Positions 1 to 62,745 of a stretch of 64,000 bases of DNA are shown one piece after another. The notes under the pieces were generated by a model. It was not told the DNA's origin. It was given only the letters and a program-made list of their open reading frames with translations, and did no database searches. The DNA lies in the sequence record MZ065353.1, one strand, 5' to 3'. The stretch comes from Escherichia virus KFS-EC3. Made by a program: the position numbers and the translations under genes. Numbering within the stretch: the stretch's first letter is position 1; every line of letters starts with the position of its first letter.

Positions 1-2
1 TT

Positions 3-1697
3 ATCCGCAGTCGTTCAGGTGGCAGATACGTCCTTCTTAAGAAACTCTGGGATTACGATAAAAAGTATGCATATATTCTTATACATCGCAAAAATGTATC
101 ACTAGAAGACATTCCAGGAGTTCCGGAAATTAGCACCGAGCTCTTTACTAAAGTTGAATCGAAGGTCGGTGATGTTTATATCAATAAAGATACTGGAGCT
201 CAAGTAACTAAAAATGAGGCAATTGCTGCATCTATTGCGCAAGAAAATGATAAACGTTCTGACCAAGCTGTAATCGTTAAAGTTAAAATTTCCCGTAGAG
301 CAATTGCACAAAGTCAGTCATTAGAATCTTCTAGATTTGAAAGCGAATTATTCCAGAAGTATGAATCTACCGCAGCTAATTTCAATAAACCTGCTACCGC
401 TCCTTTAATTCCCGAAGCAGAAGAAATGAAACTTGGAATTAATTCATTAGCTTCTAAAACTAAGGCAGCAAAAATTATTGCCGAAGGAACCACAGATGAA
501 CTTCATTATGACTATAAATTCTTTTCAAAAAGTGAGGTTAATGAAGTTTCTGAAAAAATTAAAGACGTAATTTTTAACGCGATCAAAAATGAACCGACTA
601 CTTCAATAAAATGTTTAGAGAAGTATGCAGCAGCTATTAATAAATTCTTTGAAGAATATAAAGATAATTGGCTTGATAAACATAATAAAACCCGTAAAGG
701 ACAGCCAGATGAAGTCTGGGAAGAAATGACTAAAAATTCCTGGAACGCAGCAAAAACTAAATTCCTCAAAAGAATGATTTATAGTTTTTCTGGAATTGGT
801 GCAGGTCCAATGATTGATATTACTATTGCCCGTGATGGTTCTAAATATACTCCATCACAAAAGCGCGGCATTAGAGAGTATTGCGGTTCAGGATATACTG
901 ACATCAATAATCTTCTTTTAGGACGCTACAATCCAGAACGATATGATGTAATGAGTGAAAAAGAAATTGAATCTGCTATAAATAACTTAGATTCAGCTTT
1001 TGAAAATGGTGACCGTATACCAGAAGGCATTACAGTTTATCGTGCTCAAAGTATGACTGCTCCTATATACGAAGCACTAGTTAAAAATAAAGTGTTCTAT
1101 TTCAGAAATTTTGTATCTACTTCTTTAACTCCTATCATTTTTGGACGTTTTGGAATTACACATGCTGGTATTGGTCTTTTAGAACCAGAAGCTCGTAATG
1201 AACTGACAGTTGATAAAAATGAAGAAGGAATAACTATTAATCCAAACGAAATAAGAGCGTATAAAGAAAATCCTGAATACGTTAAAGTTCAAATAGGATG
1301 GGCAATTGATGGAGCTCATAAAGTTAATGTTGTATATCCAGGAAGTCTCGGAATAGCAACAGAAGCTGAAGTTATTCTACCACGCGGATTGATGGTCAAA
1401 GTTAATAAAATAACTGATGCTTCTAATAATGACGGAACAACATCTAATAATACAAAACTCATTCAAGCTGAAGTTATGACTACGGAAGAACTCACCGAAT
1501 CAGTAATTTATGACGGTGATCGTCTAATGGAAACTGGTGAAGTAGTTGCAATGACAGGTGATATTGAAATAGAAGACAGAGTTGACTTTGCATCATTTGT
1601 TTCATCAAATGTTAAACAAAAAGTAGAATCATCTCTTGGAATTATTGCGTCTTGCATAGATATTACAAACATGCCTTACAAGTTCGTTCAAGGATAA
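3..1697 (+). CDS. Alt-like ADP-ribosyltransferase paralog, 5'-truncated by the window edge (reading frame is open from nt 3; the track's 423-aa ORF is only its C-terminal part)
   Basis: Frame 3 is open from the window start through the stop at 1697. Residues before M426 (RYVLLKKLWDYDKKYAYILIHRKN...ISRRAIAQ) parallel residues ~140-230 of the downstream 685-aa Alt-like ORF. C-terminal half carries the R / STS / E-x-E ADP-ribosyltransferase signature (KRGIREY, FYFRNFVSTSL, EAEVILPRG). Confidence 0.75.
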   Translation: MRSRSGGRYVLLKKLWDYDKKYAYILIHRKNVSLEDIPGVPEISTELFTKVESKVGDVYINKDTGAQVTKNEAIAASIAQENDKRSDQAVIVKVKISRRAIAQSQSLESSRFESELFQKYESTAANFNKPATAPLIPEAEEMKLGINSLASKTKAAKIIAEGTTDELHYDYKFFSKSEVNEVSEKIKDVIFNAIKNEPTTSIKCLEKYAAAINKFFEEYKDNWLDKHNKTRKGQPDEVWEEMTKNSWNAAKTKFLKRMIYSFSGIGAGPMIDITIARDGSKYTPSQKRGIREYCGSGYTDINNLLLGRYNPERYDVMSEKEIESAINNLDSAFENGDRIPEGITVYRAQSMTAPIYEALVKNKVFYFRNFVSTSLTPIIFGRFGITHAGIGLLEPEARNELTVDKNEEGITINPNEIRAYKENPEYVKVQIGWAIDGAHKVNVVYPGSLGIATEAEVILPRGLMVKVNKITDASNNDGTTSNNTKLIQAEVMTTEELTESVIYDGDRLMETGEVVAMTGDIEIEDRVDFASFVSSNVKQKVESSLGIIASCIDITNMPYKFVQG

Positions 1698-1700
1698 ATC

Positions 1701-3758
1701 ATGGAACTTATTACAGAATTATTTGACGGCGCTTCGGCGCCGGTTGTTAACTTAAATCCTAAGCATAAAATACCTCAAATTTTTGCTATTCAAGCCGGTG
1801 AAGAAAGCGTGCTTCCTGGATTTAGATTTTGTACATACACCTCTGGCGGTGATACAAATAAAAACGTTAAGCCAGGCGATAAAATGATGCATATCGTAAT
1901 GATAGGTGTCAATGAGAAACTATCATTAGTTAAACTTAAAAACTTGGGTGGAAATCCAATTGGTGTCATTAATGCGGTTTTTGATACTGCTCTTCAAACA
2001 ATGAAACAGTATAAAATTGATGCATGCCTATTCCGCGTACTAAAAAGTAAAACAAATGGCGCAGCTCGTCAAATGCAAGTTATTGCTGACCGTTTAGTAC
2101 GTACTAAAGGAGCAGGTCGATATGTTCTTTTAAAGGAAATCTGGGATTATGATAAAAAGTATGCATATATTATGGTTTACCGTAAAAATGCCAATTTAAA
2201 AGACATTCCAGGTGTACCTCCTATTTCAACTGAGTTATTCACAAAAGTTGAATCAAAGGTTGGTGATGTTTATGTAGATGTTAAAACAGGTAATGCTGTT
2301 CCTAAAGCTGTTGCTGTTGCTGCTTCTATTGCTTTAGAAAATGATAAGCGCACGGATCAAGCTGTTATTCAGAAAACTAAAATTAGTCGTCGATTGGCAG
2401 CACAAGCTCAATATTCTACTGTCGATGCTTCGCTTCAGGGTGATAGCTTCGCTGCCAAGAAATATCAAGAGTTTGAATCTAAAGTTCCGGTATATAAAGC
2501 AGAAGGACCAATGAACTCTGGTGTTATTCAGATTGGTTCAAACTTCGGCAAAGGAGCTATCGGTGGTATGAGAAGTGCTTCTCGTTTTAAATCTAACGAT
2601 TATGAACTAGAAAGCTTCCGAAATCATATTGCATTGGCCCATGCACGTTTACGTGATCCGTCTATCAGACTGCAGAGCGATATAACACATCAAGGTTCTC
2701 AAGAATATTTAAAGAATAAAGAATTTTTTGATTATAAAACCGATAAAATTTTGAGCGATCTCGCTGACATTAATATTTCTAATAGCTTTGATGTTATTAA
2801 GAAAATTATCAATGATTTAGTTAAAGGTTCTAAAGCCACACCAGACGAAAAGGTAGCTATTATTCAATTTGTCATGAATGGCATTTATAAATTGATTAAT
2901 GAATCTGCTGCTCAGGCATATGAATACGCAAGCACCGAAGTAACTCCAAAAGGACTGACTCAGGCTGAGTCTGATGTAATTGAAGATTATTGTGCAGATT
3001 CATATGTTGAAATGAACTCGTTCCTCTTGGGTAAACCAGATTCTACCCGTGAAGAATATATGGAACGAGCTATTAAACACATCGAGACGCTGGATTCTGC
3101 CTTTGCCAAAGGTTCAGTTCTTCCTCCAGGAACTACGCTTTATCGTGGACAAGAAGTTACTTTTAAAACTTTACGCCATAATATTGAAAATAAAATGTTC
3201 TATTTCAAGAACTTCGTATCAACATCGCTTAAACCAAATATCTTCGGTGAGCATGGTAAAAACTATATGGCTCTAGATGATTCCGGCGCAGTATTTTCTG
3301 GTGAAGGAGAAGGTTCTGTTGATGCTGAAGATTTAATGCATATGGGCAGTCATTCTGCTTATGCGAATGAAGATGCTGAAACTAGCGTAGGTATGGTAAT
3401 AAAAGGAGCTGAGCGAATTAAAGTTATCGTTCCAGGTCATTTATCGGGATTTCCATCAGAAGCTGAAGTTATTCTACCGCGTGGAATTTTGTTGAAGATT
3501 AATAAAGTAAGCACGTACATGATGAAAGAAACTGCTTATAACAAGTATCTAATCGAAGGCACAATCGTTCCTCCTTCTGAACAATTAGAAGAATCGGTAT
3601 ATGATGGCGATCATCTAATGGAAACTGGTGAAGTTCGTCCAATGGCTGGGTTTAATCAATTCCTTGTAGAAGAATCAAAAGAAGAGGAAAACGAAGTTTC
3701 TCAAATCTTGGCTTCTTTGGTTAACATCAACGGAATGTCTAAAAAGTTCAAGATGTAG
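1701..3758 (+). CDS. alt: Alt ADP-ribosyltransferase (packaged, injected with DNA), 685 aa
   Basis: Length matches T4 Alt (~682 aa). R-STS-ExE motifs present (FYFKNFVSTSLKP, EAEVILPRG). N-terminus MELITE| fits the prohead protease (L/I)xE cleavage consensus. Sits next to gene 54 as in T4. Confidence 0.8.
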   Translation: MELITELFDGASAPVVNLNPKHKIPQIFAIQAGEESVLPGFRFCTYTSGGDTNKNVKPGDKMMHIVMIGVNEKLSLVKLKNLGGNPIGVINAVFDTALQTMKQYKIDACLFRVLKSKTNGAARQMQVIADRLVRTKGAGRYVLLKEIWDYDKKYAYIMVYRKNANLKDIPGVPPISTELFTKVESKVGDVYVDVKTGNAVPKAVAVAASIALENDKRTDQAVIQKTKISRRLAAQAQYSTVDASLQGDSFAAKKYQEFESKVPVYKAEGPMNSGVIQIGSNFGKGAIGGMRSASRFKSNDYELESFRNHIALAHARLRDPSIRLQSDITHQGSQEYLKNKEFFDYKTDKILSDLADINISNSFDVIKKIINDLVKGSKATPDEKVAIIQFVMNGIYKLINESAAQAYEYASTEVTPKGLTQAESDVIEDYCADSYVEMNSFLLGKPDSTREEYMERAIKHIETLDSAFAKGSVLPPGTTLYRGQEVTFKTLRHNIENKMFYFKNFVSTSLKPNIFGEHGKNYMALDDSGAVFSGEGEGSVDAEDLMHMGSHSAYANEDAETSVGMVIKGAERIKVIVPGHLSGFPSEAEVILPRGILLKINKVSTYMMKETAYNKYLIEGTIVPPSEQLEESVYDGDHLMETGEVRPMAGFNQFLVEESKEEENEVSQILASLVNINGMSKKFKM

Positions 3759-3787
3759 TTTACAAGTCCCTCGTGTTGTGTTATAGT
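3758..3787 (+). promoter_or_regulatory. T4 early-type promoter (GTTTAC -35, ~18-bp spacer, TATAGT -10)
   Basis: GTTTAC at 3758-3763 and TATAGT at 3782-3787, upstream of the 96-aa ORF. Confidence 0.45.
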
Positions 3788-3818
3788 AATCTTACTGACA
3801 TAACATGAGGAACACAAA

Positions 3819-4109
3819 ATGAAATCTTCTTTACGCTTTTTAGGTCAAGAACTTGTAGTTGAAGGCGTTATTCCTGCTGATAACGCTTTTAATGAAGCAG
3901 TTTATGATGAATTTATCAAAATTTTTGGAACAGATAAAAAGTTCGGAATTTTTCCTTCTGAAAATTTTTCAAAGCCAGAACAGACTGAAAGCATTTTCCA
4001 AGGTGTAGTAACAGGTAAATTTGAGTCAGAAGCTCCGGTAAAAATTGAAGTTTATATTGAAGACAGTTTAGTTGCTTCAGTTGCTGCTTTCATTTCATTC
4101 CGTAAATAA
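3819..4109 (+). CDS. hypothetical small protein (96 aa) between alt and gene 54
   Basis: ORF with start codon about 30 nt downstream of an early-type promoter; followed by a hairpin terminator. Confidence 0.5.
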   Translation: MKSSLRFLGQELVVEGVIPADNAFNEAVYDEFIKIFGTDKKFGIFPSENFSKPEQTESIFQGVVTGKFESEAPVKIEVYIEDSLVASVAAFISFRK

Positions 4110-4115
4110 AAATAT

Positions 4116-4133
4116 GGGGACCTTTCGGTCCCC
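4116..4133. terminator. bidirectional stem-loop (GGGGACC-TTTC-GGTCCCC) between convergent genes
   Basis: 7-bp GC-rich stem with 4-nt loop, flanked by A/T-rich sequence on both sides. Confidence 0.55.
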
Positions 4134-4137
4134 ATTG

Positions 4138-5103
4138 TTATATTGCTCCTAATATTTTACTTTGCGAATTGACAATTCCTGTCATAGTATTAATGTTTGA
4201 AATGCTTCCAGCAGTTCCCCCTAATCTACTAAGTCGTGAAAGCGAATTAGATAATCCAGTAACACCTCCACTATTTCCGAGAACGCTTTGAATGCCATTT
4301 ATAGCAGCAGATTCAAGCCACTCAAGCGCAGCTTGTCTATCAACCGACCCGGCCTGCATGACTCTATACGCAAAAGTAACATCAAATGTAGTTATTTGGT
4401 TATCTCCATCATATGATAACTCAGGAGCGCTCACTGACACTGGAATGCATCCGGTGAACATCACCGCAGTATGAGGTAATCCATTACGAGCATGAAGATT
4501 AACCTGAATATCTGCCTCGACATCTTGCGGCAAAGCACGCAGTCCAGTTACTGGGTCTTGAACAGCGTTAACCCAGTCTTGCATTGCACGATAGTTACAA
4601 GCTTCTGAATCCATTCTAAATGAAATAACCAAAGGGTCTAATTCTCTCCCAGTTATACGAATATTAGGAGAGTTATAATTCCAGTCAGTTTCATAGGATA
4701 ATCTATTCTCTGGCATTTTTACAGAATATATCATCAATCCAGATGAGTTATATGCCATATTAAAGAAGTCAATTAAATATGTACCAACTGTAAATGAGCC
4801 CAATAAACTTTGAACTGTACGTTGACTCATGGCACCAATAAGATATTTACTAACCCCTGATTTTCTTATCAGTTTTTGTGTGCCAGCAGTAATTAGCGTG
4901 GTAATTCCCTGATTAATATCGCCTTGAGACAATCCTAACCAGTCTGAATTTAGACCCAAGTTATTATAAGAAAAGTTGCTAATTGAACTTATCAACGAAG
5001 AGCTTTTAGTTGATGGAGTTGTCGCAAAAACGCAGCTAAACATATTATTACGCTGGAAATCTGCGTTTATTGCTTGATTATTAAATTCCTCTAAAGAATA
5101 CAT
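4138..5103 (-). CDS. 54: gp54 baseplate tail-tube initiator
   Basis: 321 aa; position and length match T4 gp54; start overlaps the gp48 stop. Confidence 0.85.
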   Translation of the reverse strand: MYSLEEFNNQAINADFQRNNMFSCVFATTPSTKSSSLISSISNFSYNNLGLNSDWLGLSQGDINQGITTLITAGTQKLIRKSGVSKYLIGAMSQRTVQSLLGSFTVGTYLIDFFNMAYNSSGLMIYSVKMPENRLSYETDWNYNSPNIRITGRELDPLVISFRMDSEACNYRAMQDWVNAVQDPVTGLRALPQDVEADIQVNLHARNGLPHTAVMFTGCIPVSVSAPELSYDGDNQITTFDVTFAYRVMQAGSVDRQAALEWLESAAINGIQSVLGNSGGVTGLSNSLSRLSRLGGTAGSISNINTMTGIVNSQSKILGAI

Positions 5104-6197
5104 TAAAAAGTCCCCGCATATAAAGAAGCACGGTTTAACGTGATAATTTCTCTCATAGTAATCTCAAGAGTAAATGTACTAGGGAGGTTTGGAGCAATAG
5201 CTAATCCGTTAAAGTTACCATTAGGTGTTTTATCAAATCTGATGCTCTGTATTTGACATGGGCCAAATATTTCCGTTTTTCCATCAAACTTAGATGTTGC
5301 ACCAAAGTTTTTCACCATCCAAATTGTTGGGTTTGAAACTACTAGAACGTTAGTTAAACTCGATGTCATTTTCTCAAATAGTGTTTTATTTTTAGCTGCG
5401 TCTTCCGGAGATAAAGGTTCAATTAACGTAGAACGATACCAATCATCTAAATACCCCTTTATTTCAGCAGCATATTGAGATTTGCCCGTTTCACCATAAG
5501 AAAAATAGTTAAAATATTGATAGATATTGATAATAGCCATCAAATCTTCTGTTGAACGTGGAGTCAAATCCCATGTAAACACTTTAGTTCTATTCTCAGC
5601 ACCGCCATACATACTTCTGGCTGTCGTATAAATCTGTTCATTATTATCAGCCATTATACCTTGTGTTATACTTTCCAGTGCCCCAAATACTGCAGTTGAA
5701 GCAATATTACTTAACACACCAGTAGCAGTACCTCCGCCTCTGCTGATAAGACTTTCTTGAACATCATTAAATCTATGTGATGATGTATCAACGTCAGATT
5801 TAGATCTCGGTAAAAGAATGTTTGCGACAGGAGCTTTACTTATTGTTCCTGAATTATTGTTTGATATTAATCCATTTGATAGTTTTGATACTGTACTACT
5901 AATAGTGTTTCTAGCTGTACTTAAAATACTCGAAGATGAAGAAGAGTAGTTAGATCTCATCGATCTAAGACTTCCAGAATCCCTAGATGACATATTGTAT
6001 GCAGTAAATAATAATCCATTCTTATATAGATCTGTTACCTGGAAGTCCCCTGTAGTGTCATTACCACTAGCACGCCCAGTTGGAAACTGGGCAGTGTATG
6101 TTTTAGTTGCTACTTCTGATTTAGTACTCTGTCCGGCTGAAATTTTCTCACCGGACTTTTTAATTAAATCAGCAGTTATTTCTTTAACAATTGCCAT
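5103..6197 (-). CDS. 48: gp48 baseplate tail-tube cap
   Basis: 364 aa, T4 gene order and length. Confidence 0.85.
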   Translation of the reverse strand: MAIVKEITADLIKKSGEKISAGQSTKSEVATKTYTAQFPTGRASGNDTTGDFQVTDLYKNGLLFTAYNMSSRDSGSLRSMRSNYSSSSSSILSTARNTISSTVSKLSNGLISNNNSGTISKAPVANILLPRSKSDVDTSSHRFNDVQESLISRGGGTATGVLSNIASTAVFGALESITQGIMADNNEQIYTTARSMYGGAENRTKVFTWDLTPRSTEDLMAIINIYQYFNYFSYGETGKSQYAAEIKGYLDDWYRSTLIEPLSPEDAAKNKTLFEKMTSSLTNVLVVSNPTIWMVKNFGATSKFDGKTEIFGPCQIQSIRFDKTPNGNFNGLAIAPNLPSTFTLEITMREIITLNRASLYAGTF

Positions 6198-12404: not shown

Positions 12405-12635
12405 TTAAAAGCTTTCTTCTACTTCATCGTCTGAATCTTCTAATTCAGCTCTTTTTCCTGCCAAAGCATCTCTCACAGAGATGTCATCAGTATCTTTTAA
12501 TTCAGTTTCTTTAACTCTTTTCTTATAATAAGCTTCAAGTTCTTCTAGACCTTCTAATGTTTGGCAAGAGGCAATTTTACCCATAAATTCATCAATAGAA
12601 GCTTCATAAAGAAATTGTTTAAATTCTAGTAACAT
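12405..12635 (-). CDS. uvsW.1: UvsW.1 (76 aa)
   Basis: The track start at 12647 is a TTG; the ATG at 12635 gives 76 aa, the T4 UvsW.1 length, with a GGAG ribosome-binding site upstream. Confidence 0.7.
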   Translation of the reverse strand: MLLEFKQFLYEASIDEFMGKIASCQTLEGLEELEAYYKKRVKETELKDTDDISVRDALAGKRAELEDSDDEVEESF

Positions 12636-12646
12636 CTTTTTCTCCA

Positions 12647-12662
12647 AAGGGCCGAAGCCCTT
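12647..12662 (-). other. stable hairpin (UUCG tetraloop on the transcribed strand) between the HNH gene and uvsW.1
   Basis: AAGGGC-CGAA-GCCCTT palindrome overlapping the HNH stop codon. Confidence 0.4.
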
Positions 12663-13353
12663 ATAAATTAACTGTTTTTCTAAGTATTCTTAGTTTGTAC
12701 ATTGATAATCCAGTAGCTTTAGAAGCATCTTTCATACATTTATACTTAACACCATTTACTTCTATAGGTTTAGCAGCTGGGTTATTAGCTCCTGAATTAT
12801 CTGGCATATTATCTTTAATTTTCTGAATAGATTTAGCGGAATGTTTCCTTCCATACATGCCATTATTTTTACCTGATTGATTGATAGAATGCAATCTTTT
12901 AGCTTCTTCAGTCCATTTTGTTGGGTTCATTCTTTTAGTTTTACTAATTTTACTTCCCCATGTAATTGGACGATTTTTCATGAGTTTTGACATATATTGT
13001 TTATGTTCTTCCGTATGGTGTTTTCCGTAAAATGGATTACCTTCACCTGATTGAAGTTCTGCCATTTTACGACGTTCCCAGGCGTAAGATTTATTAACGT
13101 GTCTTTCATGAGTCTTTGAATTCATCCCCATACATATAACGGCTTTAATTATACCGTAATGGTTTGGATGAATTTTAGCTAAAAGTTTATGAGCTATAAA
13201 ATGCTCTTCAGCTGTTAGTTCTACCAAATTACACTTATCATCTGTACCGCCCATACATCTAGGAATTATATGATGAGTTTCAGTGTATCCATTAAGGCGA
13301 GCCCGATTCTGGGCTCTATTAATTAAATTATCGTATATTAATTTATAATTCAA
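12661..13353 (-). CDS. free-standing HNH homing endonuclease (230 aa) inserted between uvsW and uvsW.1
   Basis: HNH core HHIIPRCMGG...NLVELTAEEHFIAH; C-terminal basic DNA-binding repeats; start ATG overlaps the uvsW stop (ATGA). Confidence 0.8.
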   Translation of the reverse strand: MNYKLIYDNLINRAQNRARLNGYTETHHIIPRCMGGTDDKCNLVELTAEEHFIAHKLLAKIHPNHYGIIKAVICMGMNSKTHERHVNKSYAWERRKMAELQSGEGNPFYGKHHTEEHKQYMSKLMKNRPITWGSKISKTKRMNPTKWTEEAKRLHSINQSGKNNGMYGRKHSAKSIQKIKDNMPDNSGANNPAAKPIEVNGVKYKCMKDASKATGLSMYKLRILRKTVNL

Positions 13354-14858
13354 AGTTTAACCTCTTTCATCACATAATTAAACTTCTCATCAGCATAACG
13401 CTGAATACGATCAAGTCCATGTTTTAAAAGATAGTTTAAATGCGAGTATTTTTTAGAAGATGTTTTTGATTTAGAAACTACGCCCGCGTCATCTATGAGG
13501 TCCCAGACCGTTGCGATTGTTTTAGAACCATGCTTACGTAATACGCGACCTATTGTTTGCAATACAATAATTTTAGATTTAACACCGTGTGCTAAAACAA
13601 CGTGATGCAGATTTTTAACTGAAATGCCAGTAGAAAATACACCATAACTAGCTACTATAATTATTCCTTTACCGTTTTCAGCTAAGGTTTTCATTATATT
13701 GCGGGTTTCGGTATCAACTTCCCCTGATACGTAATAAACTTTATCGTATTCATTTTTAATTAAATCGAAAATAGCTTTACCATGTGATACATGCTTAAAC
13801 ATGACAAAAGCGTTTTCATCTTTTTGCGCAAGCTTAATAGCTAATTTAGCGATCCATTTATTTCTTTTACTGAGTCCAGTAATAATTTTTATTTCTTCTT
13901 GGTAAGTTTTTCCCTTTAATTTAGTAGTGAACTCATCGGGATAGCGAAGAAAAATACTATTAATTTTTAACTCAGTTACTTGTCCATCTTCCATTAATTT
14001 AGAAGTCGTTACTGGCTTAAATATTTCACCGAACATTCCAACATACTGCATGATATTAGCTTTGCCATCACGTAATGAACCAGACAAACCGAATTTGAAC
14101 ATGCAGTTATTTAAACCTGATATGATAGATGAAATACTTTTTCCTGTGGCAAGATGGCATTCATCATTCATCATCATTCCAAACTGTGAGAACCATTCTT
14201 TCGGTTGTTTTACTACAGTTTGCCATGTACCAACAACGACTGGTGCATCATTTTTATATTTATCATCTTTTGATGCTCCACCGCCGATTTTCTTTATCAT
14301 TGCATGACTGAATAAACGATAGTCAACAAAGTCATCAGCCATCTGAGTTGTCAGAGCAGTTGTTGGAACAATGATAAGAATTTTACCTTCATAATTTTCC
14401 AAATAATAACGTGCAAGCAAAGCTTGAATTAAGGATTTACCTGCAGATGTTGGAAGATTAAGAATTCTACGACGATTAACTAATCCTTCGAACACTGCAT
14501 CTTTTTGATACCAATGCGGTTCAATTCTTTTATTTCCTGAATAGATTTCTAATTTAGAAAGCCATTCATCAAAATCTTTTCTTGATAATTCTTCTTTTTC
14601 GTTAATCTGTGGGTCAATCCAGGCTTTATAGCCAAAGTTATCACAGAACTTTTTAATTTGCCCGACTAAGCCGAATGGAAGAAGACGATTATAATCTAAA
14701 AGACGGATTCGTCCATCCCAGTTGCCATATCTGAAGCGAGGATTAAACCTATATCCATCGGCCTCAAACGAAAAGAAATCTCTTAATTCGTGGAACGTGC
14801 TCTCTTCACAATCGATGCGTACATGACTGAAGTCGTGAAAATGTACTTTAATATCCAT
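13350..14858 (-). CDS. uvsW: UvsW DNA/RNA helicase (SF2)
   Basis: 502 aa; N-terminus MDIKVHFHDFSHVRIDCEE and Walker A PTSAGKS match T4 UvsW. Confidence 0.9.
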   Translation of the reverse strand: MDIKVHFHDFSHVRIDCEESTFHELRDFFSFEADGYRFNPRFRYGNWDGRIRLLDYNRLLPFGLVGQIKKFCDNFGYKAWIDPQINEKEELSRKDFDEWLSKLEIYSGNKRIEPHWYQKDAVFEGLVNRRRILNLPTSAGKSLIQALLARYYLENYEGKILIIVPTTALTTQMADDFVDYRLFSHAMIKKIGGGASKDDKYKNDAPVVVGTWQTVVKQPKEWFSQFGMMMNDECHLATGKSISSIISGLNNCMFKFGLSGSLRDGKANIMQYVGMFGEIFKPVTTSKLMEDGQVTELKINSIFLRYPDEFTTKLKGKTYQEEIKIITGLSKRNKWIAKLAIKLAQKDENAFVMFKHVSHGKAIFDLIKNEYDKVYYVSGEVDTETRNIMKTLAENGKGIIIVASYGVFSTGISVKNLHHVVLAHGVKSKIIVLQTIGRVLRKHGSKTIATVWDLIDDAGVVSKSKTSSKKYSHLNYLLKHGLDRIQRYADEKFNYVMKEVKL

Positions 14859-16217: not shown

Positions 16218-17636
16218 ATGGCTTTTACAGTTGATATAACTCCTAAAACACCTACTGGAGTTATAGATCAGACTCAGCAGTTTACTGCTACACCCAGTGG
16301 TCAAACTGGAGATGGACCTATTACATATGCTTGGACTGTAGATGATGTTCCACAAGATGGAGCTGAAGCAACTTTTAGTTATGTACTAAAAGGACCTGCC
16401 GGTCAAAAGACTATTAAAGTAGTTGCAACAAACACAGTTCCAGATACTGATGCTGAAACGGCAGAAGCTACTACAACTATCACAGTTCAAAATAAGACAC
16501 AGACAACTACCTTAGCTGTAACTCCTAATAGTCCTCCAGAAGGAGTAATCGGAACAGCTGTTGAATTTACTGCTGCCTTAGCTTCACAGCCATCGGGCGC
16601 ATCTGCTACGTATCAATGGTACGTAGACGGTTCTCCTGTGGGCGAAGCAACTTCTGCTACATTCAATTACACTCCTTCCACAAGCGGAGTTAAAACAATT
16701 AAGTGTGTAGCTCAAGTAACCGCGACAGATTATGATGCAAAGGAAGTTACTTCTAATGAAGTGTCACTGACTGTTAATAAAAAGACGCAGACAACTACCT
16801 TGACAGTAACTCCTGATAGTCCTCCAGCAGGAGTTATTGGAACCCCAGTTCAATTTACTGCTACCTTGGCTTCTCAACCTGATGGAGCGTCTGCCACGTA
16901 TCAGTGGTATGTAGATGATTCACAAGTTGGTGGAGAAACTAACTCTACATTTAACTATACTCCAACTACAAGTGGAGTAAAAAGAATTAAATGCGTAGCT
17001 CAAGTAACAGCGACAGATTACGATACAAAAGAAGTTACTTCTAATGAAGTGTCATTGACAGTTAATAAGAAAACAATGAATCCACAGGTTACATTGACTC
17101 CTCCTTCTATTAATGTTCAGCAAGATGCTTCGGCTACATTTACTGCTAACGTTACGGATGCTCCGGAAGAAGCGCAAATTACTTATTCATGGAAGAAAGA
17201 TTCTTCTCCTGTAGAAGGGTCAACTAATGTATACACTGTTGATACATCATCTATTGGAAGTCAAACTATTGAAGTTACTGCAACTATTACTGCAACTGAT
17301 TACGATAGCAAAACTATTACAGCAGAAGGTCAAGTTCAGGTAACTGATAAAGTTGCTCCAGAACCAGAAGGTGAACTACCTTATGTTCATCCTCTTCCAC
17401 ATCGTACTTCAGCTTACATCTGGTGCGGATGGTGGGTTATGGATGAAATCCAAAAAATGACTGAAGAAGGTAAAGATTGGAAAACTGAAGATCCAGATAG
17501 TAAATACTACCTGCATCGTTACACTCTTCAGAAGATGATGAAAGACTATCCAGAAGTTGATGTTCAAGAATCGCGTAATGGATACATCATTCATAAAACT
17601 GCTTTAGAAACTGGTATTATCTATACCTATCCATAA
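16218..17636 (+). CDS. hoc: Hoc, highly immunogenic outer capsid protein, with one extra Ig-like domain (472 aa)
   Basis: Tandem Ig-like modules followed by a C-terminal capsid-binding region; position between inh and rnlB. Confidence 0.8.
   Translation: MAFTVDITPKTPTGVIDQTQQFTATPSGQTGDGPITYAWTVDDVPQDGAEATFSYVLKGPAGQKTIKVVATNTVPDTDAETAEATTTITVQNKTQTTTLAVTPNSPPEGVIGTAVEFTAALASQPSGASATYQWYVDGSPVGEATSATFNYTPSTSGVKTIKCVAQVTATDYDAKEVTSNEVSLTVNKKTQTTTLTVTPDSPPAGVIGTPVQFTATLASQPDGASATYQWYVDDSQVGGETNSTFNYTPTTSGVKRIKCVAQVTATDYDTKEVTSNEVSLTVNKKTMNPQVTLTPPSINVQQDASATFTANVTDAPEEAQITYSWKKDSSPVEGSTNVYTVDTSSIGSQTIEVTATITATDYDSKTITAEGQVQVTDKVAPEPEGELPYVHPLPHRTSAYIWCGWWVMDEIQKMTEEGKDWKTEDPDSKYYLHRYTLQKMMKDYPEVDVQESRNGYIIHKTALETGIIYTYP
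16491..17063 (+). repeat. in-frame tandem duplication inside hoc (two ~285-bp units, 16491-16775 and 16776-17063)
   Basis: Encoded peptides NKTQTTTLAVTPNSPPEGVIG...EVSLTV and NKKTQTTTLTVTPDSPPAGVIG...EVSLTV are near-identical. Confidence 0.85.
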
Positions 17637-20532: not shown

Positions 20533-20559
20533 TGCGCTTTCCTTTTGGTTTATATGATT

Positions 20560-20567
20560 TATTTATA
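20560..20567 (-). promoter_or_regulatory. late promoter TATAAATA for gene 24
   Basis: tatttata on the plus strand, about 30 nt upstream of the gene 24 start. Confidence 0.6.
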
Positions 20568-20584
20568 CCATAAAAACAACTAAA

Positions 20585-20600
20585 GGGACCCGAAGGTCCC
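20585..20600 (-). terminator. terminator hairpin after gene 23 (UUCG loop on the minus-strand transcript, then a T-run)
   Basis: GGGACC-CGAA-GGTCCC; the minus-strand transcript continues with uuuaguuguuuuu. Confidence 0.65.
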
Positions 20601-20615
20601 TTAAATCGTCAAAGA

Positions 20616-23039: not shown

Positions 23040-23678
23040 TTATAACGCTTTTTTCATGGCCTCTGCGAGAGCCATATAGGCGTCATCGGCACTTGTATCG
23101 GCTTCCGCCGTCTGTGATTCGGTAATTTCCTTAGGAGTTACCCATGCATCTGGAGCACTTGGACCCCATACTGCATCAACACCTACAGTTAATTTGAATC
23201 CTTCGTTTACGATACGATAACCTTTATTTGTGTCAGTCAATGAACCTAATCCACGAGAAGAAACTCCTGGAATCCATCCGGCACGAATATTAGCTGCTAA
23301 TTTATCTCCAGGACCATGGTCACCTTCAATAACACGAGCTCGTCCGTATACGTCATTTCCTTTCCACCACATATCTTCTATAATGATAGCGGCTTGCATC
23401 GGGTCAACATTAGCGCGTGGAGGATGATTTAATTCTCCGAGAGCTTGTTTAGTTAAAACTTGCTCATTGATATAGTCTTTTACCGCTTTTTCTAATATGC
23501 GTTTTGGATAAAGACGTTTATTTCTATTGACGACTTCCGCTTGCATGAATATTCCTTCGATGTATAAACCGGGTTTTAAACCTAGGTCTTTTCCATCATG
23601 AGATTCAAGCATTGGCACGCCATCAATAATTTCGCCAGGTTGACCCCAAGTTTCAATTAGTAATTGGGGTTCATTCAT
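23040..23678 (-). CDS. 21: gp21 prohead core protease
   Basis: 212 aa as in T4 gp21. Confidence 0.9.
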   Translation of the reverse strand: MNEPQLLIETWGQPGEIIDGVPMLESHDGKDLGLKPGLYIEGIFMQAEVVNRNKRLYPKRILEKAVKDYINEQVLTKQALGELNHPPRANVDPMQAAIIIEDMWWKGNDVYGRARVIEGDHGPGDKLAANIRAGWIPGVSSRGLGSLTDTNKGYRIVNEGFKLTVGVDAVWGPSAPDAWVTPKEITESQTAEADTSADDAYMALAEAMKKAL

Positions 23679-49226: not shown

Positions 49227-49679
49227 ATGGCATATTCTGGAAAATGGGTTCCTAAAAATATATCAAAATATAGAGGTGACCCTAAAAAAATTACGTATAG
49301 ATCAAATTGGGAAAAATTCTTTTTTGAATGGTTAGATAAAAATCCAGAAATTATTGCATGGGGTAGTGAAACAGCAGTAATTCCTTATTTTTGTAATGCA
49401 GAAGGGAAAAAACGTAGATACTTCATGGATATTTGGATGAAAGATTCTTCTGGTCAAGAATTTTTTATTGAAATAAAACCTAAAAAAGAAACACAACCAC
49501 CAGTTAAACCAGCACATCTAACAACTGCAGCGAAGAAAAGATTTATGAATGAAATTTATACATATTCCGTTAATACTGATAAATGGAAAGCAGCGCAAGC
49601 TTTAGCTGAAAAGCGCGGAATAAAATTTAGAATTCTAACAGAAGATGGATTACGAGCTCTTGGCTTTAAGGGGGCATAA
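49227..49679 (+). CDS. 4: gp4 head completion protein
   Basis: 150 aa as in T4. Confidence 0.85.
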
Positions 49680-50506
49680 TGGCTATTTTTCAAATAATTA
49701 ATGAAAGCACTCCCCAAGTTCCAAAGGTTAAGCAATCATTAAACGAAAAGAAATGGATTCAGATAGGTCTTGAATACAAAAAGGCCAAAGCAAAAGGAAT
49801 GACAGGAAAGCAATTTGCTGAAGAAAGAGGAATCAAATACTCTACGTTTACTTCAGCAATGTCAAAATATGCTTCAGGAATTAAAACAGCTGAAAAGATT
49901 CAAAAGCTTGAATCAAAACCAATGAATAAACTCAATAAGCAAGAAAGACAACTGCTTATGATAAATTCATTCAGGCAAACGTTGCGTGATAAAATTCGTA
50001 ATGAAGGTGCAGCAATTAATAATAAAACCAGAAAGTGGTTTGCTGAAACTATTAAGCAGGTAAAAGGACATAAAGTTGTTCGCCCGCAGCCGGGACGAAT
50101 ATATGCTTTTGCTTATGATGCTAAACACAAGGAAACTCTTCCTTATTGGGATAAATTTCCTTTGATAATTTACCTCGGTTTAGGTAAACACAATTTAATG
50201 TACGGATTGAACTTGCACTATATTCCACCTAAAGCTCGTCAGCAATTTCTAGAAGAGCTTTTAAAGCAATATTCAAATACACCTACTATTACTAATAAAA
50301 CGAAATTAAAAATTGATTGGAGTCAAGTGAAAGGATTTAGGGGTGCAGACCAAATGATTAAGGCATATATACCTGGTAATATTATGGGTAGCCCTGTTGA
50401 AATCGCCCCGAAAGACTGGGCGAACGTTGTGTTAATGCCACTCCAAAGCTTCTACTCCAAAGGAAAACGTTTCTCTGCAAACAAAGTTTGGAGCAATGTA
50501 CGATGA
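49679..50506 (+). CDS. 2: gp2 DNA end protector protein
   Basis: 275 aa (T4: 274). Confidence 0.85.
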
Positions 50507-51162
50507 ATTATGAAAAAATTTATAATTCACTAATTGATAGGGCTCGCAATAGAGCCCTTACTGGATATAAAGAAAGACATCATATTATTCCGAAATGTTT
50601 AGGCGGTAGTAATGATGCTTCTAACTTGGTTGATTTAACTCCAGAAGAGCATTATGTTGCACATCAGCTATTAGTAAAAATACACCCAAATTCTTTAAAA
50701 TTATCTTATGCAGCCATAAAAATGACGGTTTCAACTAAATATGTTAGGAGAAATAATAAAGTTTATGGTTGGTTAAAAAGAAAACATGCAAATAATATTT
50801 CAAATACACAAACTGGACGAAAATATTATAATAATGGTAAAAGATGTATAAAATTACATGATGGAGATATAATTCCTGGGGGATTTATTTTAGGAAGAGG
50901 ATGGAGTCCGACACAAGGAACAACTCATTCTAGAAAAAATGACACGTTTAAAAACAAAAAGCTTCAATCTGCTTTAGCTAATAAACGGTGGGAAAAAGAA
51001 AAGAAAATAATGTTAGATAACTTTGGAGTTAACACTATTGATGAAGCAAAGAAAATTGTTCTTGATTTTAAATCAACTTGTCATCCAAGATATTGGCGAA
51101 AGCCAACTTTAGAAAAATTTCCATTTATGACTTCTGCTCGTTTAAGAAGTCTAATAAATTAA
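50503..51162 (+). CDS. free-standing HNH homing endonuclease (219 aa), paralog of the one at 12661..13353, inserted between genes 2 and 3
   Basis: The track start at 50488 is a TTG; the ATG at 50503 overlaps the gene 2 stop (ATGA). HNH core [11 protein letters not shown]...[14 protein letters not shown]. Confidence 0.8.
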
Positions 51163-53331: not shown

Positions 53332-53589
53332 ATGAAAACTTTCAAAGAGTTTGCTACAAAAACCACTATCACTGAATCTTCTCACGGTATGGAAGTAAAG
53401 CTTGGAATGGCTTTAGCTGAAGCTGAGCGTCTTTTCTCTCGTATTAAAGAACTTGCTGCTGCAGTCGATCCTTCATCTTTTAAAGGAGACCAAACTAAAG
53501 TTAAAGCACTTTTAGCGTTATGCTCCGATGCAGGAGAAATTGCTAAAAATGGTTCTAAGATGAAGAAACGATTAGAAGATTTAAAATAA
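53332..53589 (+). CDS. internal-protein-like small protein with capsid targeting sequence (85 aa)
   Basis: N-terminus MKTFKEFATKTTITE|S has the IP-type leader ending in an (L/I)xE protease site; early promoter upstream. Confidence 0.65.
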   Translation: MKTFKEFATKTTITESSHGMEVKLGMALAEAERLFSRIKELAAAVDPSSFKGDQTKVKALLALCSDAGEIAKNGSKMKKRLEDLK

Positions 53590-53601
53590 TTTCACAAAGT
53601 T

Positions 53602-53631
53602 GTTTACACAGGGTTTTAGTAGTGATACTAT
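53602..53631 (+). promoter_or_regulatory. early promoter module, copy 2
   Basis: Same 18-mer TTCACAAAGTTGTTTACA as copy 1; GTTTAC at 53602-53607; GTAGTGATACTATTA at 53619-53633. Confidence 0.6.
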
Positions 53632-53665
53632 TACCCTATCAAAACAAAATCAAATGGAAATCAAA

Positions 53666-53899
53666 ATGAAAACTTTCAAAGAGTTTATCGCTGAATCTTC
53701 TGATGTAAAAGTTGAGTTTATTTACACTGGCAAGAAAGATAAAATGGGTGAAATGCCTTATGGAGTTCTTCGTGATGCATTAGATAATTTCGGTCAACTC
53801 GCCGCAGAAGATTACGGTGATAAAATTGTTGTTACTGGTCCTGCTGCAGTTATTGAAAAATGGGCAGCAGAAAATAAATCAATTTTTCGTAAAAAATAA
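53666..53899 (+). CDS. internal-protein-like small protein with capsid targeting sequence (77 aa)
   Basis: MKTFKEFIAE|S leader (IAE site). The track ORF at 53600 is extended upstream through the promoter. Confidence 0.6.
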   Translation: MKTFKEFIAESSDVKVEFIYTGKKDKMGEMPYGVLRDALDNFGQLAAEDYGDKIVVTGPAAVIEKWAAENKSIFRKK

Positions 53900-62271: not shown

Positions 62272-62745
62272 ATGAAAACATATCAAGAATTTATCACTGA
62301 AGCAGTTATTAATTCTCAAATTATTGCTGAATCTTTTACTGATCTTTTGAAATTTAAAAAAGGTCAAAAAATTACTGCTGTATTAGATGATGGTACAGAA
62401 GTTGAGATGGATGTACAGGGATATAATTATGCAGTAGATGGAAAACTGTATAATAAATCTCATGCTAAATTTGATTCATTTGACGACTTTGTTAATACAG
62501 TTGAAGATGAAAAAACTCGTCGATCCATTGCAACTGGTGATGCTAAGGTTCTTATGGCGCACGGTCATGAACGTATCCGCGCCAAACAGAATAAAATGGG
62601 CGAAGATAATTTTGCATTAGTTGGTTATCAATCTGGTAAACAAACTTATGGTTATCAGCGTACTGCTACCATGTATAACAAAAATGGTAAAATTGCCTTT
62701 GTAAATAGTAAAGGTTCTATTCAGTACGTTAAATCGTTCAAATAA
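62272..62745 (+). CDS. internal-protein-like protein with capsid targeting sequence (157 aa; ipII/ipIII position)
   Basis: MKTYQEFITE|AVINSQIIAE|S gives two (L/I)xE sites; adjacent to e, as the T4 ipII/ipIII genes are. Confidence 0.65.
   Translation: MKTYQEFITEAVINSQIIAESFTDLLKFKKGQKITAVLDDGTEVEMDVQGYNYAVDGKLYNKSHAKFDSFDDFVNTVEDEKTRRSIATGDAKVLMAHGHERIRAKQNKMGEDNFALVGYQSGKQTYGYQRTATMYNKNGKIAFVNSKGSIQYVKSFK

Follow-up and report, generated by a model that had tools for sequence, protein, structure and literature searches.

An apparently ancestral pair of Alt-family ADP-ribosyltransferase genes in Escherichia virus KFS-EC3 and the remnant of the second gene in phage T4

Two adjacent Alt-family genes with intact catalytic residues

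The DNA analysed here is a 64,000-nucleotide stretch from Escherichia virus KFS-EC3 (sequence record MZ065353.1), referred to as a whole as the window, which begins with two adjacent plus-strand genes for proteins resembling Alt, the ADP-ribosyltransferase that phage T4 injects into its host. The phage is a Tequatrovirus closely related to T2, T6 and HY01. The upstream open reading frame (ORF A; 3..1697, + strand) is the positional orthologue of T4 alt; its frame is open from base 3 for 564 codons and ends with a stop codon at 1695-1697, so that the window holds the 564 C-terminal codons plus the stop. A sequence-only reading of this stretch had recognised that A runs off the window edge and, as judged from the orthologues of 697 amino acids (aa) in HY01, T2, T6 and RB68, about 133 codons indeed lie outside. 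The downstream frame (ORF B; 1701..3758, +) starts 3 nucleotides (nt) past the stop of A and encodes a full-length second Alt paralogue with the N-terminus MELITELF, having the length of 685 aa and the initial MELITE that the same reading had given. A ribosome-binding site for B, AAGGA (1690..1694, +), is located within the final codons of A, 6 nt ahead of the ATG.

That both genes encode Alt-like proteins with the R/STS/E-x-E signature had been proposed from the letters alone, and this is borne out by Pfam, by phrog_802 and by the motif coordinates. The Pfam family PF03496 (ADPrib_exo_Tox; cut-off 23.4 bits) matched A with 131.6 bits (E-value 3e-38) and B with 72.8 bits (E-value 3e-20), and phrog_802 (Alt-like RNA polymerase ADP-ribosyltransferase) matched both proteins end to end (1e-202 for A and 2.7e-255 for B); neither A nor B was matched by any NCBIfam model. 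The two proteins align with each other at 35% identity over 576 residues with an E-value of 2e-89, so their resemblance does not arise by chance. When compared with T4 Alt, B shows 41% identity over 718 aligned positions (E-value 4e-161), and A shows 62.5% identity over 566 aa to residues 134-682.

The catalytic residues were located by aligning T4 Alt, the full-length A orthologue of HY01, the A and B proteins of the window, and T4 ModA and ModB. In A, the motifs are YRAQ (1038-1049, with the Arg at 1041-1043), STS (1116-1124) and EAEV (1362-1373, with EAE at 1362-1370); the corresponding motifs of B are YRGQ (3141-3152, with Arg482 at 3144-3146), STS at residues 507-509 (3219-3227) and E587-A-E589 (3459-3467), all on the + strand. 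These residues sit in invariant columns together with R478, S503, E574 and E576 of T4 Alt, and neither copy lacks any of them. The E-x-E form is that of the arginine-specific members of the R-S-E transferase clade. As judged by homology, A and B are Alt-family ADP-ribosyltransferases belonging to this R-S-E (Alt/VIP2) clade.

Two other groups of enzymes within the clade were compared with the pair. T4 ModA and ModB share with A and B the ADP-ribosyltransferase clade and the catalytic R, S and ExE columns; unlike A and B, they are early, unpackaged proteins of about 200 aa without N-terminal modules, middle modules or propeptides, and they are 18-19% identical to T4 Alt. With 697 aa in the A orthologue and 685 aa in B, and with their extra modules and predicted propeptides, the proteins of the window are not of the ModA/ModB type. 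Among the toxins, a profile built from eight Alt sequences matched the structures of C3-like toxin (4xsg), BECa (5gtt), Certhrax (4fk7), VIP2 (1qs2), CdtA and iota Ia at E-values of 1e-6 to 1e-3, and B alone gave no match at E ≤ 0.01 against the sequences of the Protein Data Bank (PDB). This similarity to the R-S-E toxins is local, spanning the helical region that precedes the Arg strand as well as the ExE strand; the toxins differ from Alt in being secreted or delivered by a binary partner, in having eukaryotic actin/Rho targets and in having no phage-head module. The enzymes of binary toxins (VIP2, iota Ia, C2I and CdtA) have two ADP-ribosyltransferase folds in tandem, an adaptor fold at the N-terminus and the active fold at the C-terminus, and they act with a partner translocation component. 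By their sequences, A and B do not appear to be members of this group, as each contains one PF03496 stretch and the profile matched the toxins only in their C-terminal active domain.

Distribution of the pair, its T4 remnant and selection on ORF B

The sequence-only reading had tentatively credited T4 with a single alt gene and had raised the possibility that the second gene found here is an extra copy. The first point was right: T4 has one full-length alt (682 aa) together with two short remnant ORFs, rather than two full-length paralogues at this locus. The idea of an extra copy did not hold up, because ORF B is no acquisition of this phage: T2, T6, the RB phages and other genera have the two-gene state as well. 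By tblastn, about 396 phage records, T2 and T6 included, encode B at an identity of at least 95%, and 278 records cover at least 80% of window positions 1-4200 (megablast). The second alt gene of T2, T6, RB32 (ORF194c), RB68 ('alt.-2'), HY01 and about 400 other Tequatrovirus records is the same gene as ORF B: it encodes 685 aa, is 97.5-99.9% identical and lies between alt and alt.-3 as it does here, with no material difference. In T2 and T6, the pair consists of proteins of 697 and 685 aa that are 98% identical to those of the window. Tandem alt pairs also occur in Dhakavirus (phage dhabil) and Biquartavirus (Aeromonas phage SW69-9), and Krischvirus (ECD7) has one full alt copy plus a C-terminal part. 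The two-gene locus is thus common and apparently ancestral, with T4 as an exception by deletion. We also considered that the tandem pair might be an assembly or duplication artefact of one sequence. This was rejected and is given no weight: the arrangement and the gene lengths recur in hundreds of independently sequenced genomes, and the copies are only about 69% identical in DNA even at their most similar part.

In the T4 reference, alt is followed by alt.-1 (61 aa), alt.-2 (67 aa), alt.-3 and gene 54, and a note in the record describes alt.-1/alt.-2 as an old duplication of the first part of alt. We found that T4 is colinear and near-identical with ORF B from the ribosome-binding site and ATG through about codon 116-117, with phrog_23015 (alt.-1) matching residues 1-56 of B and phrog_15247 (alt.-2) matching residues 62-117. 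A run of five A (A5; 1860..1864, +) is A4 in T4, a frameshift that produces the stop of alt.-1. Further downstream, the window contains two copies of the 9-base-pair (bp) direct repeat CTAAAAAGT, at 2040..2048 (+) and 3739..3747 (+), which form the left end and the right end, respectively, of a 1699-bp deletion of the T4 type; T4 contains one copy, and therefore the 1699 bp between the repeats have been lost there. The same deletion junction is present in phages FL23 and SG1, and a 401-nt query across it found the T4-type junction contiguous in 91 of the 499 matching records. Because FL23 still has A5, and thus carries the deletion without the frameshift, the deletion must have come first and the 1-nt frameshift later. 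On this comparison, T4 alt.-1/alt.-2 are the deletion remnant of the whole paralogue B and not a partial duplication.

We then compared the selective constraint on the two genes in five genomes (with synonymous divergence, dS, of up to 0.30). The ratio of nonsynonymous to synonymous divergence (dN/dS) was 0.01-0.07 for B and 0.02-0.09 for A, values that indicate strong purifying selection on B and a constraint no weaker than that on A. This bears on the view, which the T4 annotation of alt.-1/alt.-2 might imply, that B is a decaying or non-functional alt duplicate. The gene can clearly be lost, given that no more than a truncated remnant is left in T4 and about 90 other records; however, the 685-codon frame is intact in the approximately 396 records mentioned above, the catalytic residues of B are all kept, and orthologous second copies at 50% identity exist in Dhakavirus. 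The low dN/dS values, the intact frame and the catalytic residues together rule out a decaying duplicate; a pseudogene reading of B was rejected on dN/dS and conservation, and we regard it as extremely improbable. The transferase domain, moreover, clusters by position across genera, the identity being 83% between HY01 A and dhabil copy 1, 56% between B and dhabil copy 2, and 35% between A and B. This grouping points to a duplication older than the split between Tequatrovirus and Dhakavirus.

The gene pair is already known, being annotated in hundreds of public genomes and in print since 2006. RefSeq names it 'Alt-like RNA polymerase ADP-ribosyltransferase (x2)', and many GenBank entries label the second gene 'hypothetical protein'. 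Nolan et al. (2006) counted alt.-1/alt.-2 of T4, along with ORFs from RB49 and 44RR, among the paralogous alt duplications, with a full-length duplicate in 44RR (PMC1524935), and a 2026 paper reported two paralogous Alt-like proteins, 43% identical, in 6phi13 and SHFML-11, for which functional divergence was proposed (PMC13600099). What is added here is the exact origin of alt.-1/alt.-2, the frequencies of both states, an estimate of selection, the aligned C-terminal protease site and the module mosaic.

Protein modules, putative delivery signals and predicted targets

The sequence-only reading had described a shared N-terminal region and substantially different transferase domains, and a module-by-module comparison gave the same picture. 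The N-terminal module of B (1701..2405, +; aa 1-235), which it has in common with A, is 68% identical between the A-type and B-type proteins and may serve as a head-core association or packaging module. The middle module that follows (2406..2945, +; aa 236-415) has 14-19% identity to the A-type middle module and cannot be aligned with it; hhalign gave a probability of 0.2% for the two kinds, a weak negative result as the profiles hold only three and two sequences. The ADP-ribosyltransferase domain of B (2946..3575, +; aa 416-625) is 35% identical to that of A, and the loop from STS to ExE is unlike in length and sequence. Identity between the types is 46% over the last 60 or so residues, where the conserved motif YDGDxLMETGEV is found. 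When the N-terminal module, the A-type and B-type middle modules and the tail at the C-terminus were scanned separately against Pfam (E ≤ 5), none gave a match above the cut-offs. T4 Alt (682 aa) resembles A and B in its locus, strand context, R-S-ExE residues, ITE-6, C-terminal LxE and tail motif, but it differs from B in having 41-43% overall identity and an unrelated middle module; targets have been studied for T4 Alt only.

About 40 copies of T4 Alt are present in the mature head. T4 Alt is cut by the prohead protease gp21 at ITE-6, with a loss of six residues, and at LTE-619, with a loss of 63 (PMC5694885; PMC9026906). At the motif level, such sites were found at both ends of B and at the C-terminal end of A, whose N-terminus lies outside the window. 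The MELITE of B (1701..1718, +) is identical to the six-residue N-terminal propeptide of T4 Alt, as the earlier reading had suspected in calling it a prohead-protease site. At the other end, LTE/S of A (1491..1502, +; the slash marks the predicted cut) aligns with LTE-619, and the 65 aa beyond it form a predicted propeptide; in B, it is LEE/S (3585-3596) that aligns with LTE-619, followed by a predicted C-terminal propeptide of 54 aa (site and propeptide together 3585..3755, +) in which YDGDxLMETGEV is contained. The whole of B has only seven [LI]xE motifs. Mature B is predicted to comprise residues 7-631, with a mass of 69.1 kDa. Gene 21 of the window (23043..23678, − strand) encodes a prohead protease 99.5% identical to T4 gp21, the protease by which A and B would be cut. 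As B keeps both gp21 positions of T4 Alt, ITE-6 and the C-terminal LxE, we infer that it is packaged into the head and injected.

Another way to explain B is that it is functional but unpackaged, acting in the infected cell late or in the manner of ModA/ModB. ModA and ModB are same-clade transferases that act without packaging, and our literature searches found no virion proteomics for B. We nevertheless consider this improbable, since B has the 235-aa N-terminal module of Alt (68%), the exact MELITE, the C-terminal LxE site and the propeptide motif, none of which is present in ModA/ModB, and since B, which lacks a promoter of its own, lies 3 nt behind a late gene. As to expression, time-course data show T4 alt behaving as a late gene (PMC9697503), and in both HY01 and T4 a late-promoter motif, TATAAATA, precedes alt by 24-29 nt. 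At the A/B junction, neither a terminator-like hairpin nor a late-promoter motif was found; the late motif nearest to B is an exact TATAAATA at 977-984 (+), which is conserved in HY01 and lies within A, some 720 nt ahead of B. The 3-nt spacing, the promoter in the relatives and the lack of signals between the genes suggest that A and B would be carried on one bicistronic late message.

Overall, we favour, with a probability of roughly 0.85, the reading that this is an ancestral two-gene alt locus whose products are two functional arginine-type mono-ADP-ribosyltransferases, both of them injected. In the mechanism we propose, both genes would be transcribed late as one message from a promoter upstream of A, with B using its own Shine-Dalgarno sequence, and both proteins would enter the prohead core via their common N-terminal module. 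gp21 would then trim each protein twice, once at ITE-6 and once at an LxE site situated some 55-65 residues before the C-terminus. Both enzymes would probably be injected along with the DNA, after which host NAD+ would be spent on arginine ADP-ribosylation of host proteins before phage gene expression. T4 Alt has Arg265 of one RNA polymerase alpha subunit as its main target, plus many minor targets (PMC2988021; PMC5512222). A would be the counterpart of T4 Alt, acting on alpha Arg265 and other proteins, and B would probably have a partly different substrate range, because its middle module is unrelated, its transferase domain is only 35% identical and its STS-ExE loop is different; targets of B that differ from those of A are thus plausible from sequence.

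Several points weigh against this reading. Literature searches returned no proteomic or biochemical study of the second copy, only descriptive mentions. The window does not include the promoter region of A, so that co-transcription rests on the relatives and the 3-nt spacing. About 18% of Tequatrovirus records, including T4, are without B, which must be dispensable on some hosts at least. The N-terminal module clusters by genome, with 68%, 65% and 56% identity within a genome versus 42-46% between genera, and for this to agree with one ancient duplication, gene conversion, head-core co-evolution or module exchange is needed. Finally, Arg265 is modified by T4 Alt and by ModA despite their identity of about 19%, so sequence divergence alone is no proof of different targets. 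That two such dissimilar enzymes hit one target also favours a view in which A and B are redundant, both acting on RNA polymerase alpha Arg265 and raising dose or robustness, as does the fact that T4 grows with Alt alone and that Alt itself is non-essential. This redundancy is rather doubtful, however, given that the middle modules are unrelated, that the STS-ExE loops differ, and that strong purifying selection has maintained both copies across genera from before Tequatrovirus and Dhakavirus diverged, which would be unusual if they were purely redundant.

Evidence on how the modules have evolved comes from the A allele shared by the window, T2, T6 and HY01, which is a mosaic with respect to T4 Alt. 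Its identity to that protein is 97-100% over residues 1-245 and 90-100% over the last 80 or so, but falls to 12-70% from about residue 250 to 615, where the allele is closer to Dhakavirus copy 1. This pattern and the clustering of the N-terminal module by genome would both fit a lineage-specific delivery module combined with a recombining middle/transferase cassette; gene conversion acting on the N-terminal module may be the explanation instead. Taken further, B may be a second head-delivered enzyme with non-Alt targets, for example a defence or translation factor that would be disabled as the DNA is injected, and the Alts may be modular proteins resembling polymorphic toxins, in which an N-terminal head-targeting module and a C-terminal propeptide frame a swappable middle/transferase unit that recombines between lineages. 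We put this forward tentatively, at somewhat less than even odds. Returning to the two injected enzymes as such, knowledge of injected phage ADP-ribosyltransferases comes almost wholly from T4, which is shown here to be atypical among its close relatives. The second, conserved Alt paralogue in most of these relatives is a pointer for work on host take-over or anti-defence in T-even phages. If B does have distinct targets, the T4 model under-reports the set of effectors that typical T-even phages inject.

Neighbouring genes and other loci of the window

Downstream of ORF B lies a homologue of alt.-3 (3819..4109, +), a DUF5498 protein of 96 aa (PF17602, 1.4e-64) that is probably not part of the Alt system. 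It is followed on the opposite strand by the baseplate genes 54 (4138..5103, −), which converges on the alt side, and 48 (5103..6197, −), beyond gene 54. The pair occupies the position of the Alt-family locus between gene 30/alt.1 and gene 54, the upstream side having been read in HY01, T2 and T6, and the order is very probably gene 30, alt.1, alt A, alt B and alt.-3, with gene 54 converging. Directly past B's stop codon, ahead of the alt.-3 homologue, we noted a site resembling a T4 early promoter (3759..3787, +; TTTACA, 17 nt, TATAGT, with TG), which is a consensus match only. A scan of positions 1-4300 for sigma-70 promoters gave 15 sites versus 15.8 in shuffled sequence, that is, no excess, and among the scanned sites only that at 3759-3787 looks meaningful, by its position. 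Between alt.-3 and gene 54, a GC-rich hairpin with a 9-bp stem (4114..4135, both strands) is terminator-like in either direction and would terminate transcripts from the alt side.

Elsewhere in the window, differences from T4 were seen at several loci. An ORF of 230 aa carrying an HNH-type motif (ETHHIIPRCMGG...EEHFIAHK) is located at 12661..13353 (−), where T4 has no sequence, flanked by uvsW (13350..14858, −) and an 80-aa uvsW.1-like ORF (12405..12647, −); a mobile homing endonuclease is its probable product. Another HNH-type ORF, 224 aa long (50488..51162, +), whose N-terminal part is similar to the first and which is also absent from T4, is inserted just past gene 2 (49679..50506). Conversely, the T4 genes for the homing endonucleases segD (between 23 and 24) and segC (between 5.1 and 5.3) have no counterparts at about 20544-20605 and about 46350, respectively. 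In the hoc region (about 16480-17074, −), the window exceeds T4 in length by about 320 nt, and T4 positions 110749-111053 align twice, which suggests a Hoc decoration protein with one more Ig-like repeat.

Two further loci concern internal head proteins. The ipIII/ipII/denV stretch of T4 (1.44 kb) is replaced by 441 nt encoding one protein of 157 aa (62272..62745, +), with no denV at that position, and this protein starts with MKTYQEFITE, an IPIII-type leader. The ipI locus of T4 is replaced by two small genes, at 53332..53589 (+) and 53600..53899 (+), whose products carry MKTFKEFATK...ITE and MKTFKEFIAE at the beginning or at an internal start; such leaders are of the capsid-targeting type found in internal head proteins, and they make the products further candidate injected proteins beside the two Alts.

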